A DNA stretch of 63,867 nt, counting the filler, from Collodictyon triciliatum (lineage: Eukaryota): NCBI GenBank assembly GCA_043381765.1. It is 20 parts of 20 records of this genome, joined end to end, with 100 filler letters (N's around TTAATTAATTAA, not from the genome) between each part and the next. Parts side by side here need not be neighbours in the genome. Positions count along the whole stretch, not along the records: positions 41,608 to 44,703 come from JBHJMP010007803.1; 19 more parts are not named here. One strand, written 5' to 3'. Within the stretch, counting starts at the first letter, position 1; each line of letters starts with the position of its first letter. Shown one piece after another: positions 6,406 to 63,717 of this stretch. The notes below the pieces were generated by a model that saw nothing but the letters and a program-made list of their open reading frames with translations, had not been told where the DNA came from and made no database searches. The position numbers and the translations under genes were made by a program.

Positions 6406-9369
6406 GGCCTTATCCTCATTAAAGCAATCGCTGGATATTTTCATGTCTGCCCTGGGTGAAAATCATCCGAATGTTGTGGCCTGCTATGAAATGATTGGAG
6501 ACATCAGCCATGATTTGAAGGAGTATCTCCATTTATTAATTATTACTACATATTTAATTGAAAAGAATAATTTATTTACTCATATTATCCTAGCTTTAAG
6601 GGTGCTCTGGAGGCGTATATAAAGACGCAGGATATTCGCGTGAGAACATTGGGCGAAAAGCATGCTGATTATGCAACTGCCCTGGAGAATGTTGGCAGAA
6701 CAAATTTTGAGCTTCAAAGGTTTTTTTTGTCTTTATATTAAAAGAAATTAAATATTTTATTAAAACCAATGAAAAAATACTTAAATAATAACTAATGCAA
6801 TACATCTAGTTCTGCTCAATGTGTTGATTGCTTCCAGAAGGCAGATGCTATCAGAAAGGAGACTAAGACAATGATGTTAATGAAAGACACCCATCAGATT
6901 GACAACATTATCCGCCTCATGAAGGATAAGAAAGAGCATGAAGCCGTCATTCATCTTTACAAAACGCTGATTCATCTATTCAGCAAGCTTTACTCCATGG
7001 ATTATCTTGGAATATGGAACAGTTGCCAAGAAATCGACAAGATTTACAAGGAACCGAAGCAGCACAAGGAAGCAATGGCATTCTGGACTGAGATGAGAGA
7101 CAAATTCGCAGACAAAGTCGGATGGATTCACCCCAGAACATTAAATTCATGCGAATACTTGTCCGTCCATTCAAAGGAGATTGGAATCAACAAAGAGCCT
7201 GTGGAGTTTACAAGAGTCAAGGAATTCATCAGTGAAACTCTTGATGATGCAAAACTGGATGAGGAATGGAATCGTGAGCAAATCATTGCATCGTTATTCA
7301 GAATTGTCTACATGTCAAAGATTGATGAGAGCAAATCAAAGGCTGCATCTGATGCAATCACACTTTTGAATTTCATGAACGTTTCGTTCTGCGGGATGGA
7401 TTTATCAAACATCAAAATTCCAAATGCAAATCTCAGTAACTCAATCGTTGAAGGTGCAAACTTCACTGGTGCCAACTTGGATGATGTTGACTTCACGAAT
7501 TTGATGCTTGGTGATTGTGTTTTTGATAATGCAAATATGAATAATGTGAAATTCGGATTTCTGAATGATAAATTGGAAGGTCATACAGGTGGTGTCAATA
7601 GTGTTTGCAGTATTCAAGGACCGAATGGTGAATGCTGGTTAGCTTCTGGAAGTGGTAATCCTTTTGGAGGTTGGGATAATACGATACGTGTTTGGGATGT
7701 AGCCACAGGAAACCAAATCAAAAAATTATATGGACATACAGATGCTGTCATGAGTGTTTGCAGTATTCAAGGACCGAATGGTGAAAAGTGGCTGGCTTCT
7801 GGAAGTACTGATAAAACAATACGTATTTGGGATGTAGCCACAGGAAATCAAATCAATACATTAAAAGGACATACAAATGATATCAACAGTGTTTGCAGTA
7901 TTCAAGGACCGAATGGTGAAAATTGGCTGGCTTCTGGAAGTCAAGATAGCGCAATACGTATTTGGGATGTAGCCACAGGAAACCAAATCAAAACATTAGA
8001 AGGTCATAAAAGCGATGTCAGGAGTGTTTGCAGTATTCAAGGACCGAATGGTGAAAATTGGTTGGCTTCTGGAAGTTATGACAAAACAATACGCATTTGG
8101 GATGTAGCCACAGGAAACCAAATCAAAACATTGGAAGGTCATACAAGTTGGGTCAGGAGTGTTTGCAGTATTAAAGGACCGAATGGTGAAAACTGGCTGG
8201 CTTCTGGAAGTCTTGATACTACAATACGTATTTGGGATATAGCCACAGGAAACCAAATCAAAACATTATATGGTCATACAAGCAATGTCAATTGTGTTTG
8301 CAGTATTCAAGGACTGAATGGTGAAAATTGGTTGGCTTCTGGAAGTGGTGATAGAACATTACGTATTTGGGATGTAGCCTCAGGAAACCAAATCAAAACA
8401 TTAGAAGGACATACAGAACCTGTCACTAGCGTTTGCAGTATTCAAGGACCGAATGGTGAAAATTGGTTGGCTTCTGCAAGTGGTAGTGACTATCAAAGTC
8501 AAGATAAGACAATACGTATTTGGGATGTAGCCACAGGAAACCAAACACACAGTCTGCAAAAACTAGAAGTGACCTACACCCAGGGAAAATACCTTGTCAA
8601 CAAAGAAAAGCCTGACGAAGTCATCGTAGTATTCAGCAGAACAAGCGATGCGATGAACATGATTGACACCAACAGAATCCAAGATGCAAGAACAGTCCAG
8701 ATTATCGGCCCAAGAAAGCTGCAAGGTGGAAACATCCAAATCAGAAATGTCGCAGGATTGAGTCGATTCAACAAATCCCTTCTACTTTCAATCGGTGCTG
8801 CTTCCTTCGATGCGGACTTTGCTGCCTATTCTGAGCGGGGTAAGTTGACCAACTTCCAGGCTCAAATGATGGCTGAGTGTTATGACAATGGATGGGGTGT
8901 TGAGAAAGATGCTGAAAAGGCTTATTTTTGGAGATTTGTCGCCCCTTTGAAGTCAGCTGAAAACTTTGGTGGATTGAAGCAACTCGCACAACAAGGCTCA
9001 AAGGATGCATTCAATGTTTTGAAAGAAATGGCTGAAATGAAGTATAAATATGGCGGATACATATATACACAGGCTGTTTCTATTGTTGCTGAATGCTATG
9101 AGAATGGATGGGGTGTTGAGAAAGACATCGAGAAAGCAGCTGAGTGGTTTGGAAAAGCTGAAAACTTTGAAAAACTGAAGCAACTAGCACAACAAGGCTC
9201 AAAGGATGCATTCAATGTTTTGAAAGAAATGGCTGAAATGAAGGATGGATATGGAAGATACAAATATCCACAAGCTGTTTCTATTGTTGCTGAGTGCTAT
9301 GAGAATGGATGGGGTGTTGAGAAAGACATCGAGAAAGCAGCTGGGTGGAGACAGAAAGCCACAGCTTAA
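6406..9369 (+). CDS. TPR + pentapeptide repeat + 7x WD40 + SEL1-like repeat protein (NLR-like C-terminal sensor architecture), 5' truncated
   Basis: Upstream exons (LGENHPNVVACY; LGEKHADYATAL) are kinesin-light-chain-type TPRs spliced into the 6871-9369 ORF. The ORF has AITLL..F.GMDLSNIKIPNANLS pentapeptide repeats, seven GH...LASGS.D.TIRIWD repeats and three AECY.NGWGVEKD SEL1 motifs. Confidence 0.88.
7570..8550 (+). repeat. Seven highly similar WD40 coding repeats (135-nt core unit)
   Basis: GH codons at 7579, 7732, 7867, 8002, 8137, 8272 and 8407; units are near-identical at DNA level. Confidence 0.95.
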
Positions 9370-42349: not shown

Positions 42350-44250
42350 ATGAAGAAAAGAAAACCTCTTGAGTCTGGGAATATAAAGTCAGTAAACCCA
42401 GACTATCGAAATGTGAAAACGTCTCTAAAGTCGATTGTAAAGAATGCAGATGACTATGACAAAATCAACGATACAGGTTTATTGTGTCATAATTTGGTTA
42501 TCGACACTTATCTGTGTCCAAGATGCTACATATTGTAATCAAAACAACTCCCAACAATCGATGAAATGTTTTTTTTTTGTACGCTTTAAGACTGTCGGAA
42601 TAATTTCACAAGATAGACCCACAAATTTAATAAACAGAAATGAGCAATGACATGATGACTTTCCATCTCAATGATTTTCGATTCCTTTTGTCCCGAAAAG
42701 AACGCTTTCCGTTGGTTGGACTGTCTCATGTATTACCGTACTTGGCGAAGTAAATGCTAACAGCTTATCATAATAACATTAAGGAACATTTTGTAAAGAG
42801 GTTACTGCGCTTTATAAATAAAACAGTTCCTAAAGACGAGAATATTACTGAAACTATTAAAAAGACAGAGTTACGAAAGTTAAAAAAAAAGCCATCTTCA
42901 AGAAACTCGACATCCCGGAACAATACAAAGAATGGGCTAAACCGCATTTGAATCATATCATTCCCGGCAATATTGTAAAAGGTATCGAATATGACGTCAA
43001 AGTCAATACAAATAAGTACATTCCATGTCTGATTTACATGAATCGCATTTTTGAGGACATTGGAACCAAACTGTTTCAACCAATCTCTATAAGAACTATC
43101 AATATGCCATTTCATATTACTCTAGATACTACATGTTTGATATATATATATATATATATATTAGTATTGTCTGGAAAAGCATTTTTACTGAAGAATAAAC
43201 CAGGATGCAAAGAGACCCTATGGGATAAGTTTTTTGAAATGAAGAAGAGGGGTTTTCATCAAAGAGACTACAATTTTAAATACACGATACAAACAGACGG
43301 GTTGGCGTTGTCATTATTGTTTGAAAAGAAAGGTATCTTAAATTCAAAATCAAAATAAATTCAAATAAAATCCAAGAATATGTTTATATAGATGAACTTT
43401 CCGAAGAGCAGTTATCTTTATTAGCGACAAAAAAAATTAGTTTGAGTGGATGCAGGCAAGTTTAATATGGTTTACATGGTGGCGGAGACAGGTAAGAAAT
43501 TACGTTACACGACACACCAAATAAGACATGATAGCAAACCTCTTGAAAATCACAAAATACTCTTGCGCGAGAAAAAAATAAAGTACGATGACTTTAGGGA
43601 TATACATGGCAACAGATTTACAAAGTGCTGTTTCTTTTGGTCTCGGGACTTTTGAAGAGAATCAGCAGTTTGAGACATCAAGAGTATCTTTAATCGATTT
43701 AGAGACAGAACTGAGTAAACAAAATTCATGCACGGTCAATTATGAAAAAATTCGAAAATATGTATGTCCATGAAATCAAGATACCAGATAGAATTATCCA
43801 GATTTTATGAATAATGAACTTTTCGAAAGATGAGACGGAGACACTATGCTAATACAAAAAGAAGTGAAGAATTGTTTATGGACTGAATCGAAAATACATT
43901 TGGCAATTATGTTGTACTGGTGAATGGAGAGTGGAGCAGAAAATCTCTGATGAAACATTTTATGCCAACAATCGGAAGAGGATTACGAAAAATACAATCC
44001 AAACGTTTTGATACAGTTAGTATAGATGAATTTAGAACCTCCAAGATGTGCTGCAACTGCGAAAAAGAACTGGAATATATGAAACCGAAAGGAAATTCAA
44101 AAAAATGTGTATAGATGTCTCGTATGTAAATAATGCAATCGCCCAGAAAGCAAACAAAGTGTATTCTTGATAAGGGACTTTAACAGCGCTAAAAATATAC
44201 TCAACAAAGTTCTTTTTACCCTTCAAAATATGCATACATCTTTCTTTTAA
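42350..44250 (+). pseudogene. Degenerate Fanzor1 (eukaryotic TnpB-derived RNA-guided RuvC nuclease)
   Basis: Collinear fragments across frameshifts and stops: VKTSLKSI, YHNNIKEHF..RLLRFIN, YDVK....Y....IYM, ITLDT, FKYTIQTDGLALSLLF, RuvC-I VDAGK (43446), RYTTHQ, LETELSKQNS, FG...NGEWS...MPTIGRGLRK, RuvC-II SIDEFRTS (~44020), CCNC and CK*C zinc finger, RuvC-III RDFNSAKNI (44173). Intronless. Confidence 0.88.
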
Positions 44251-44400
44251 AAAAAATAGTCTGTTTGGTCTTCCTGGCAACCTTAACCACTACGCAACCT
44301 CTGTGAAAAAAGTGGTGAGACCTCGAATACTAGCGCAGCAAGTTTATCAATCGAAAGATGGCATACTGCTTCTAGTAAATAAGTAATTGTGGCCACTAAT
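44251..44400 (+). ncRNA. Candidate Fanzor omegaRNA scaffold / element 3' end
   Basis: Relatively GC-rich island directly 3' of the ORF with nested stems GGTCT/AGACC, ACCACT/AGTGGT, TACTAG/CTAGTA, GCAG/CTGC and ATC-GAAA-GAT. Confidence 0.4.
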
Positions 44401-44804
44401 AATCAATTAACTAATTTTTTTTAAGAAAGGATATAAATTCCATATTAGTAATGTAGACGACATGATACATTGATGTCGTTTTACCATTTTTGTTCATAGA
44501 CACAAAAACGCATTTGGCCATCAAAATGGCTCTCCTCTGTTGGTGCTGTATGCATTCTTCTGCTTTCTGACATGGAAGAATCATCGCCTAACATCCAACG
44601 CGTGCCAATATACTATTGAGCCAGGAAGAGAACCGATATACACACCACGAACTATTAAAAAAACAAAAACAAAAAACAAAAAACAAAAAACAAAAAACAA
44701 AAANNNNNNNNNNNNNNNNNNNNNNNNNNNNNNNNNNNNNNNNNNNNTTAATTAATTAANNNNNNNNNNNNNNNNNNNNNNNNNNNNNNNNNNNNNNNNN
44801 NNNT

Positions 44805-44840
<36 letters not shown>

Positions 44841-44842
44841 TC

Positions 44843-44921
<79 letters not shown>

Positions 44922-45036
44922 TCATTCATTTTTTGTTCAATTTGTTTTAATTTTGTTTCGTGAGAACAGGCCCTATTTCATTCATGCTGGTATTTCTTTT
45001 TATTTCTTTTTGACTTTTTTTTATAATAAGAGTCCC

Positions 45037-60584: not shown

Positions 60585-60776
60585 AGAAAAAAAAACAAAA
60601 AAAAAACAAAGAACAAGGCCAACATCTACACCATCCAGCACAAAAAAGAAAGGGAGAATAAAAAAAAAAAAAAACANNNNNNNNNNNNNNNNNNNNNNNN
60701 NNNNNNNNNNNNNNNNNNNNTTAATTAATTAANNNNNNNNNNNNNNNNNNNNNNNNNNNNNNNNNNNNNNNNNNNN

Positions 60777-62990
60777 GCCTGCTGTGATTAGCTTGTTGTC
60801 CATGGAAAGCGATGAACCCACGGTGGTAGGTAGACTCGTGACCTTGAAAGTCAGCGTATCTCCTGCGTCCACATCCTGTCCCTTGATAACAATAGACGCT
60901 GCAGTGTTCATTTCGATAATCACAGATGTGGGCACGAGTGCTATGGGTGCATGATTGACATGGATCACATTTATTGTGAAAGTATTTATCAGAGAACCCC
61001 CATTCCTATCGTCCACTATCCGAAAGTTGAATGTTGCAAAAGGTGACCCAAAGCCTATGTAAGGGGGATTATATGCAAACTGAGTTCCATATGTGATTGC
61101 TCTGGGTAACGAATTCTGAGATATCTCTACTCCACTGTCATCGACAAGAATTCCTTGTAATGGAAGCGACAAAATAATGACAGAGAGGGTCGTTATGGGG
61201 TTATCTGGGTCACAGTTAGGATGGTTACTCCATAAAATGTTGGAAATGGTATTTGATGTGCTGCTCTCGTATATAGCCAGACTCACAGGAACTGAGACAG
61301 GTGGCTGATTCACAAAATTGACATTTACAGTTACCTCATAGGTGTTTGATGAAATGAAATCCTTCACCGAAAACTGAAAAGTCATCAGTGCGGTTCCATA
61401 AAGATTCTTTCCCGGTGAAATTATAAGGCGCCAGGAGTTCGGTGCCATTCTAGGAATGGTGTTTCCAGCTACCTTTACCTGTCCACTTGTGGAACTTCCA
61501 TCCAAGGTTGTAAATACAACACCATTTTCGGGAATCGAATTAATAATGAGCGTAACCGAATCTCCTTCAGCATCAGTTGCAAAAATATCGACGTTTCCTC
61601 TCGTGTTCTGGTCTATCGTTATGGTGACTGGAGATGACAACGGCGGTGTGTTTTGACGAGTACCCACCGATATTGAAATTTCAGCGTCTGCTGATTGTAC
61701 CATATTGTTGGTCATTTTGAAACTAAATTTATCCGATATTGGTGAGGAAATGAATTGGTCATTGCTCTGGTAGAAGATTCTGTTAATCGGGTCAATAACT
61801 GCAGTGTTGATTGACGTTATTCTCGTGCCAACAGAACCGTCTGCTTTGTATTGAAACAGTCGACCCCTGGTTGGTGTTGAAGAAATAATGGCAAACAGGT
61901 TCAGATTGTTTTTATCTGAACCTGTTAATTGAATCACAATCAATCTTCCTGCTATTGCTTCAATCGAAGCAGGTATTGAAGCCGGAGCATAAGGCTGGTG
62001 CGACAAGACATCAATACGGATAATGACAGGTATTATTTTACCATCCAATAATTCTTCAGTGATGCTGAAGGTCGAGTATGGTTGTCCATTTGTATCACTT
62101 ATAGGTGTGAAAATCACGTATAGATTCCGATTGGTTACTGTATCGGTGGCCAGGGAAATTGGAGATCCTTTTGACCCGTCTGCATTGACCTGGCTCAATA
62201 TTCCTTTTGATGGAAGTGAATTGAATGATATCTTTCTAGCGATGCCTGCATAGAGCTGGAGTGTGAAAATAACATCCTTATTCGTTGGTGTGGTCACGAG
62301 TAATGTGGTTGGCGAATAGCTACTCTGCGCAGATCCATCCACCGAGACAAAGAAAACAGCATCATTATAATCAATGTCACCGAGGTTATATGATTCTTCA
62401 AATCCTATCAGCACTTTACCTGAATTACCTTCAGTAAACATCGCAACGTGATTCTTTTTGTCCGAGTTTATGCTCCTGATGGTATAGTAAGTCGACGCAT
62501 CCAAGTTAGTGTCCCAAAAACGGTCTGTAAATCCGTTTGCAATCAAAAAGAATCCTATGCTGGTTCCTGCCTTAAATGGACCTATTCGCACAGTCTGTCC
62601 TGGTTTAAGCGAACCTGAATCGGCGGAAAGATCAGGAAAAACCACATTCATGGATATTATGTTGTTTCCAGAGTCATACACAAAATAGCCTAAGGAGTTG
62701 CGGTAACCCGTGCTTTCTGAGACGAATGTGACGTAGAGTGTGCTTGTCTTGTTAAGGTCTATGTTTGCATTATTTTGTGGGCTGATGAGAGCAGGGTTTG
62801 GTTGTCCTTGATGGGGAAGCCACTGGTTAATCGAAGCCACCAGACTAGGAGGCTGTTGGATTATCTTTGACTCCAAGCAAACCGCGACCGTGTAATCTGG
62901 GTTGAGCAGAAGACCAAATGGTTGTGGGTTTGGTAGAGTGCATTTAGTTTCATGCACATTGGCTAACGAGTGCAATGCGGCAAGTACCAT
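60777..62990 (-). CDS. Large surface/adhesion protein: DUF4114-like domain plus cadherin-like/bacterial Ig (Big_9-type) repeats, 3' truncated
   Basis: VTFVSESTGYRNSLGYF...IGFFLIANG...IGFEE....GDIDYNDAVF, then repeats NTPP...ATDAEGD, VNQPP..., VNHAP...GQDVDAGDTLTF. Confidence 0.78.
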
Positions 62991-63717
62991 TGTGAATAAC
63001 TAAAAAAAAAAAAATGTGGTGTTATGAACCATTGAAAATTTAAAAAAAAACATGGAGATGAAGGTAGGATTTTGATGTATAAGGTAAAAGAAGTAAAGCA
63101 ACCATCTAGAGCCGTATTGGAATAAAAAGAAATAAAGCAACTTAGTTGGTAATAATTAACAGATATTTTCATGAGCGCAGATGACTATACATATTTCGTG
63201 TAAAGAAACAGTGTTTTCGTTTTTATTTCTGAATGATTGATGTAAACTTACAAGACTCCAATACCGAGACATTCTACCCCCAGAAACGCCTGCTCTTTTA
63301 GAAAACTTTTACGAAACCTTATTCCGACTTTAAATGCTCTAGAAGGCTGATTGCGTTATGTTTAATCATGGATTTAGATAATTGTAAGGGAGTCAGTAGA
63401 AATAAAGTCTGTTTCGTGATATTTCGGTGTCTAAGGTGAGTGCTTAAAAAATAGTATTGTGAGTGTGATCAAGCCTTTCTTAATCATAAAAAGGAGGATG
63501 TGGGCAGTTGAAACCGTGCAAACACTATGCTTTGTATTAACGTTTGTCTATCTCTATCATCCTGTGATAGAGATAGAGGCCACAATTCAAGTATAACTCA
63601 ACATCGTTTTCCGTCCCAATAGTAAGAAAAAAAGTCATGAAGAAAAATATCATGAAACCACTCCTGTATGGGATATAGCGGTAGGACCAACTCAGCTAAA
63701 CATCGATTTAAGGGAGG

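Follow-up and report, generated by a model that had tools for sequence, protein, structure and literature searches.

Fanzors are, to our knowledge, the only RNA-guided DNA endonucleases known in eukaryotes, and they are under development as compact genome editors. Bao and Jurka described Fanzor1 genes in 2013, from 26 eukaryotes and from 18 large DNA viruses (PMC3627910), and Fanzors were shown in 2023 to be RNA-guided nucleases (PMC10432273). The published Fanzor catalogue reports 3,655 unique sequences, up to 122 copies per genome, and the presence of introns and nuclear localisation signals (NLSs) (PMC10530073). Of the 42 Fanzor loci reported for Spizellomyces punctatus, 19 are full length (PMC10432273), so partial or decayed copies are normal. 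We analysed a stretch of 63,867 nucleotides of Collodictyon triciliatum (Eukaryota; assembly GCA_043381765.1; 20 parts joined by filler), hereafter the window, in which a Fanzor1 pseudogene occupies positions 42350 to 44250 of the + strand. We consider it about 93% probable that this locus represents a decayed copy from a multi-copy family of mobile elements, whose cargo gene was Fanzor1, the RNA-guided RuvC endonuclease of eukaryotes that derives from TnpB. It is an ordinary kind of genomic fossil, in a little-sampled branch of Fanzor1.

Three Fanzor1 proteins have solved structures: SpuFz1 of S. punctatus (8gkh), PpFz1 of Parasitella parasitica (9cf0) and GtFz1 of Guillardia theta (9cer). 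The window locus shares with them its overall length, a long N-terminal half with a TDG motif, the RuvC-I Asp, a Gly followed downstream by a Glu in the context D-E-[FY]-x-T-S, a C4 zinc ribbon and the motif RD-x-N-S-A-x-N-I. Like the Fanzor1 of S. punctatus, it appears as multi-copy in its host lineage. Unlike the solved proteins, the window copy is dead, and its sub-family carries, after RuvC-I, an insert of about 33 residues. Its likeness to the solved proteins is low: the best of its fragments scores 36.9 bits, and its intact relative P0153 (see below) 85-102 bits. In the Spu-1 element, inverted repeats of 30 nt and a guide RNA have been mapped; neither could be defined at the window locus.

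Family assignment and active-site residues

Short open frames on the + strand at 42350-44250 join collinearly into one gene of about 620 codons, from an ATG at 42350 to a terminal TAA at 44248-44250, which lies 21 residues before the C-terminal end of P0153. A fragment of 75 residues from this gene (43887-44114) was compared with 1.84 billion representative proteins using phmmer, and gave 407 matches at E<=1e-3, 47 of which were at E<=1e-10. Many of the matched proteins are 600-700 residues long, and are matched at residues ~480-560. With the best full-length match, a protein of 634 residues (P0006), tblastn returned four collinear pieces, residues 1-588 covering 42350-44199, with a joint E of 1e-87.

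Searches against PDB sequences placed the gene among Fanzor1 proteins. The 75-residue fragment matched PpFz1 (E 3.1e-8) and SpuFz1 (E 0.015), and a fragment of 165 residues (42861-43358) matched the same two chains (E 0.043 and 0.075, respectively), collinearly and about 380 residues further upstream. No Fanzor match was obtained in the same database with the fragments 43446-43655 and 44092-44250, which are too short. For P0006, all 3 matches at E<=0.01 were Fanzor1 proteins (SpuFz1 9e-37, PpFz1 7e-34, GtFz1 7e-16), and the 3 matches of P0153 were likewise the solved Fanzor1 proteins (2e-28 to 4e-23). Among the Pfam families, eight fragments of the window yielded only PF07282 (Cas12f1-like/TnpB zinc-ribbon), at 15.7 bits for a cut-off of 26.3 (E 0.017). 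The family PF26935.1 is precomputed for every homologue listed from P0151 to P0272; our local Pfam scan, run on P0151, P0152 and the window fragments, did not report it.

The active-site residues were then followed along the broken frame. Twenty columns are invariant in 23 full-length homologues, and 18 of them are kept in the window, including the RuvC-I Asp, the Gly, the downstream Glu, the T-S pair, two Cys, the R-D pair and two Asn. The two that changed are a Pro, now Ala, at 43452, and an Arg, now Ile, at 43521. The RuvC-I Asp codon (VDAGK, 43449-43451) corresponds to the invariant D372 of P0006 and to the Asp of DPNK in SpuFz1. At the canonical position of the RuvC-II Glu stands a Gly (NGEWS, 43926-43928), which is the invariant G496, and 34 codons further on is the Glu of IDEFRTS (44028-44030), equivalent to the invariant E530 of P0006 and to the Glu of DEYKTS in SpuFz1. 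This is the rearranged RuvC-II described for Fanzors, with an inert Gly or Pro at the canonical place and an alternative conserved Glu downstream (PMC10530073); G500 and E536 are the corresponding pair in the account of Bao and Jurka (PMC3627910). The RuvC-III Arg-Asp (RDFNSAKNI, 44173-44178) matches the invariant R580 and D581 of P0006. Through the P0006-SpuFz1 alignment, the three acidic residues fall on the DPNK, DEYKTS and RD positions of SpuFz1, whose active site is reported to comprise D383, E541, D606 and N385 (PMC10432273).

The zinc-ribbon cysteines lie between 44049 and 44127 (CCNC at 44049-44060, CLVC at 44116-44127), interrupted by a frameshift at 44106. The Fanzor1 motif has been given as D-X(125,275)-[TS]-[TS]-X-X-[C4 zinc finger]-X(5,50)-RD (PMC3627910). 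All of its parts are found here, as codons in a broken frame: the D at 43449, T-S-K-M-C at 44037 (about 196 codons on), CCNC...CLVC, and the R-D at 44173, 15 codons past the last Cys and inside the motif's spacing. The long N-terminal half (REC/WED) is also there, with about 366 codons before RuvC-I, and it aligns with P0151, P0153, P0006, SpuFz1 and PpFz1. The features of Fanzor2 and of IS607-type TnpB (HTH_OrfB_IS605, ~400-480 residues) were not found, no HTH_OrfB or OrfB_IS605 domain being detected by Pfam in the window fragments, P0006, P0024 or the other scanned homologues.

The gene begins with the basic stretch MKKRKP (42350-42367, + strand), and the start MKKRK is common to P0153, P0151 and P0006. 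This stretch is a putative NLS; N-terminal NLSs are described in Fanzors (PMC10530073).

An initial annotation of the locus, made from the sequence alone, had proposed Fanzor1 on the basis of collinear open-frame fragments, of the motifs VDAGK, IDEFRTS, CCNC...CLVC and RDFNSAKNI, and of the N-terminal motifs KTSLKSI, NNIKEHF, TDG..S..F and ETELS. The fragments are present and collinear, in agreement with the four tblastn pieces of P0006, and every one of these motifs aligns with its counterpart in the homologues. The assignment to Fanzor1 is upheld by the matches of the fragments to solved Fanzor1 chains, by the exclusive matches of P0006 and P0153 to such chains, and by the motif, the RuvC-II arrangement and the N-terminal half; similarity to RuvC/TnpB was found, and the fragments did not lead to unrelated families.

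A broken reading frame

To place the lesions, the window was aligned to protein guides with our own protein-to-DNA dynamic-programming alignment, which permits shifts of 1 or 2 bases. The lesion count varied with the guide. With P0006 (residues 3-588 on 42353-44199, 246 of 575 residues identical, 43%), 11 stops and 7 frameshifts were found; with the closer P0153 (residues 1-627 on 42350-44247, 381 of 623 identical, 61%), there were 7 stops and 8 frameshifts. Partial guides agreed, with 198/323 identical residues for P0151, 106/208 for P0003, 88/133 for P0013 and 69/126 for P0002. With P0153, the in-frame stops are TAA at 42536, 42751, 43812 and 44131, and TGA at 43443, 43815 and 43884, each aligned to an ordinary residue of P0153, and the frameshifts are at 42587, 42636, 42865, 43335, 43439, 43593, 43765 and 44106. 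An in-frame TAG appears in addition when P0006 is the guide. As TAA, TAG and TGA all occur, no single change of genetic code opens the frame. The window copy is therefore full length, from its start codon to near the natural end, and, with seven stops and eight frameshifts, unable to make the protein.

Two local length differences were seen inside the gene. An (AT)11 microsatellite at 43140-43161 (+ strand) lies in the coding frame and lengthens it by 4 codons compared with P0153 and P0151. The sub-family insert, of about 33 residues, lies at 43593-43690 (+ strand), just after the window frameshift at 43593; it is missing in giant-virus relatives, and shows as an insert relative to P0006. A GT..AG intron of 100 nt at 43583-43682 had been a candidate at this place, and was dropped because the insert is read through in frame by P0153 and by P0003, and no contig of the public runs described below was found joined across its borders. 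In the frameshift-aware alignment, no insert relative to P0153 was able to be an intron.

The locus had been annotated as an intronless fossil with a (TA)n expansion near 43140. The stops and frameshifts, located base by base, bear out the fossil status, the expansion is the (AT)11 run, and the gene is indeed intronless, since the sole apparent insert forms part of the coding sequence of P0153 and P0003, two members of the sub-family. The frameshift-aware reconstruction that the annotation called for is Fanzor1-like over its full length with both P0006 and P0153.

Dispersed copies, element ends and alternative origins

A word-index search brought up the closest relatives: P0153, an intact protein of 648 residues encoded on a 2,610-nt contig of a public ENA metagenome assembly, and P0151, a protein of 331 residues from NCBI that is an open N-terminal half. 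The same kind of search among longer proteins with the 75-residue fragment gave 13 candidates, none of which scored. P0153 and P0151 resemble the window read-through by 61% identity over 623 and 323 aligned residues, by their MKKRK start and by the same motifs, and P0153 shares with it the insert of ~33 residues; unlike the window copy, both have open frames. In a FastTree phylogeny of 54 rows, rooted at midpoint with no labelled outgroup, the window copy grouped with P0003, P0002 and P0013 (support 99), and the sister of this group (support 95) was a clade of genes from viral and metagenome contigs including P0006 and the locus L001. The window copy, P0153, P0151, P0003, P0013 and P0002 form a distinct sub-family, with about 61% identity to P0153, the one intact member known, and only about 40% to the nearest large intact group, which is on giant-virus contigs.

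Viral and metagenome contigs were scanned for further members. In IMG/VR, a pattern scan with an alignment of 23 homologues matched at least 598 stretches, and among those listed 564 of 598 encode relatives. One of them, L001, on a 254-kb contig of a giant-virus metagenome-assembled genome (MAG), is 88% identical to P0006. An open reading frame (ORF) of at least 550 residues was present in 132 of the 160 viral and metagenome loci that were fetched (median 623 residues), and the window read-through, with X at breaks, aligned over its full length with L001-L006 at 39-40% identity. The window's own sub-family was not recovered in IMG/VR: the P0153 scan matched 36 stretches and 0 relatives, and a scan with a 3-row alignment gave 14 loci, all at <=39% identity. 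In JGI metagenome contigs, exact 8-mers of the fragment matched 147 stretches, with 0 relatives, and an alignment scan returned 503 relatives among 597 stretches; the best was only 57% identical, hence none is from the window's sub-family.

Copies much closer to the window were found in public sequencing runs. Four of them (X1, X2, X3 and X6) were compared with 42300-44300, X1 and X3 being RNA or DNA libraries of coded organisms A and B from one study. On this stretch lay 348 contigs of X1, 349 of X3, 11 of X2 and 4 of X6, and those of X1 and X3, 85-99% similar to the window along the entire gene, covered all 30 depth bins; X2 and X6 left parts of the stretch without cover. By identity class (99+, 95-99, 90-95 and <90%), the contigs numbered 40, 77, 143 and 88 in X1, and 42, 83, 129 and 95 in X3. 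In the index of sequencing runs, all holders had small shares, 0.05-0.13.

The comparison of bases and indels, which covers 40 of the 422 positions that differ and 12 of the 46 indels, indicated that several lesions of the window are not shared. The window's stops at 42536 (T>A), 43812 (T>C) and 44131 (T>G) are each removed by the base that all, or almost all, of the contigs carry, and the codon at 44131 is Glu in both P0013 and P0153. Indels cancelling the window's frameshifts near 42865/42883, 43593, 43765 and 44106 were carried by 1-6 contigs per run: +A at 42881 (2 contigs in X1, 1 in X3), -1 at 43591/43592 (some contigs), -2 at 43766 (3 and 2) and -1 at 44099 (4 and 6). We conclude that the locus belongs, as a decayed member, to a family of dispersed repeats, and that many of its lesions are private to the window copy. 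Besides, 151-nt contigs of X2, a freshwater metagenome, agree with the window at every base over 42750-42901 (apart from one gap) and over 43015-43129, and that sample seems to contain the window organism or one very closely related to it.

The other copies also bear on where the element ends. The 3' flank at 44251-44290 (+ strand) is resembled by other copies, with a loose-end consensus of 4 contigs at 44253. As this likeness spans 44253-44290, the element extends past the stop, and 44251-44290 is presumably part of it. The upstream and downstream sides of the locus are cut off by gaps, made of runs of N around a TTAATTAATTAA linker, at 41508-41607 and 44704-44803, and no target-site duplication was found in a locus so truncated.

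A number of points weigh against the reading of the locus as a mobile-element copy. No terminal inverted repeats of at least 14 nt bracket the gene within 41600-44705, a span truncated by the gaps at 41508 and 44704, and the flanking ORFs had no transposase or other family match. There were no tRNA or Rfam matches. The fold of 44150-44420 gave no guide-RNA signal (z +0.39 on the + strand, -0.21 on the - strand), and an nhmmer profile of the 3' element of giant-virus loci had no match on the + strand downstream of the gene. The best downstream score (+ strand) of a covariance model, R1, was 3.9 bits (E 3.8), a miss that counts as weak evidence, since the clade behind the model is only ~40% identical in protein. 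The contigs of X1 and X3, furthermore, come from coded organisms and are no proof for this genome, and several frameshifts lie in A-runs, where they might be errors of sequencing. The mobile-element part of the reading thus comes from copy number and known Fanzor1 biology, and not from defined ends. The best R1 match anywhere was on the minus strand inside the gene (10.6 bits, E 0.1). A likeness by eye of 44262-44320 to stem 1 of the viral element was supported neither by the fold nor by nhmmer nor by R1, and was set aside.

Could the locus instead be an endogenous viral element, that is, the remnant of an integrated giant-virus segment rather than a copy of a cellular transposon? The nearest large intact group is indeed on giant-virus MAG contigs, as the 564 relatives among the 598 listed IMG/VR stretches illustrate, the window's sub-family is sister to the viral-contig clade, and the Fanzor1 of L001 sits among genes for ribonucleotide reductase, DUF5755 and a glycosyltransferase. 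However, when the whole window was compared by tblastx with the 160 viral and metagenome loci, only the Fanzor region stood out, other bins having few low-score or generic matches; the neighbouring ORFs of the window are of cellular type (Ras, LRR, WD40, P-type ATPase), the sub-family was not found in IMG/VR, and some 350 contigs in each of X1 and X3 point to a dispersed repeat. A viral remnant is accordingly improbable. A bacterial contaminant, or another gene of RuvC/TnpB type such as Fanzor2 or an IS607/IS605 TnpB, would fit the generic PF07282, below cut-off, as the only Pfam signal in the fragments. This is scarcely credible, as no Fanzor2, TnpB or Cas12 chain was among the PDB matches of P0006 or P0153, although papers name such structures; the gene, with its ~366 codons before RuvC-I and ~620 in total, exceeds the mean of ~480 reported for TnpB (PMC10530073), and its context is intron-bearing eukaryotic DNA.

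Alternatively, the gene may be live, its lesions being due to sequencing errors, unrecognised introns or a non-standard code. The assembly is of low quality, with gaps every few kb, and at least three of the frameshifts are in A-runs (42865/42883, 43439 and 44106). Dropping these still leaves the seven stops, which relative to P0153 are of two kinds (four TAA, three TGA), with TAG too relative to P0006. They align to ordinary residues of P0153, no insert could be an intron, other ORFs of the window, of 756-857 residues, are open under the standard code, and the X2 freshwater contigs are identical to the window over two parts of the gene. We regard a live gene as very unlikely. The reading that we retain is that of a decayed copy of a Fanzor1-bearing mobile element. 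In its ancestor, the 3' end would have given rise to a guide RNA, and this RNA with the protein would have cut DNA beside a short target-adjacent motif (TAM), as SpuFz1 and other Fanzor literature suggest. By analogy with TnpB, RNA-guided cutting probably aided the persistence of the transposon. The lesions private to this copy suggest that it died after insertion and has drifted neutrally since then.

Elsewhere in the window, no second copy of the gene was found, the best match outside 42300-44300 having an E of 0.067. Perfect microsatellites, for instance (TAA)22, (CACAT)20, (TTTA)20 and (TTCT)30, border nearly every gap with a TTAATTAATTAA linker, among others at 41440-41708, 42180-42288 and 44657-44927, and at many other places. 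The contigs evidently broke at simple repeats, so that neither the order of the pieces nor their spacing is certain. Two long intron-free ORFs were observed: one of 857 residues at 6796-9369 (+ strand), with at least 7 near-identical WD40 repeats followed by Sel1 repeats, and one of 756 residues at 60729-62999 (- strand), with DUF4114, a SibA-like Ig domain and cadherin-like domains.

Giant-virus relatives and significance for the family

The giant-virus Fanzor1 genes (P0006; L001-L160) are collinear with the window copy over their full length at 39-43% identity and form its sister clade. They differ from it in being intact for the most part (132 of 160, by the ORF measure above), in having a covarying 3' element, and in being without the 33-residue insert. 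Conservation of their 3' flank reaches ~80-90 nt beyond the stop and then drops sharply. The 3' element itself (for example L016:6735-6904), common to giant-virus and metagenome loci, is ~170 nt long, overlaps the gene end and stops sharply after GGTGTAA, ~80 nt beyond the stop codon. It has three covarying helices, in which 88.9% of cells pair, compared with ~45% with slid partners; covariation was 0.281, compared with 0.129 after shuffling (none of 500 shuffles reached 0.281), and both partners change in 24 of 37 pairs. From these patterns, the element looks like a guide-RNA scaffold together with the right end of the mobile element. In L001, the Fanzor1 gene is preceded, on the opposite strand (L001:3638-4678, - strand), by a transposase gene of type DDE_3 that also encodes an HTH_28 domain (E 1e-13). 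Fanzor1 has been reported in association with Tc1/mariner, with which this neighbourhood fits. The reductase gene near the L001 Fanzor1 encodes the small chain, the glycosyltransferase is of type GT2, and an LCAT-like gene is also present.

The initial annotation had further suggested that intact relatives may exist elsewhere in this genome, and that they would define a new programmable nuclease. The existence of relatives is borne out by the intact P0153, the open half P0151 and the many copies in two runs; none of them was placed in this genome. The second claim was overstated, as the locus adds one more member to a family for which more than 3,600 are catalogued (PMC10530073), and no guide RNA could be defined. 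A wider scenario may nevertheless be put forward, tentatively, as possible but on the whole rather doubtful: the copies would belong to an undescribed Fanzor1 sub-family, marked by the 33-residue insert and sister to giant-virus Fanzor1, which would have entered the protist lineage via giant viruses and risen to tens to hundreds of copies. It might still be alive in some genomes, with its own guide RNA and TAM, unlike those of the viral clade, in P0153-type copies and those of organisms A and B.

One dead copy by itself contributes little to the development of genome editors. The intact representative of its sub-family, P0153, is directly testable, with no need to rebuild a fossil, and the 3' RNA element of the viral loci, with its sharp right end, is directly usable to define guides in the viral systems. 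That viruses spread Fanzors between eukaryotes was proposed earlier (PMC3627910), and the sister relation of this sub-family to the abundant giant-virus Fanzor1 bears on such viral spread of Fanzors among eukaryotes.

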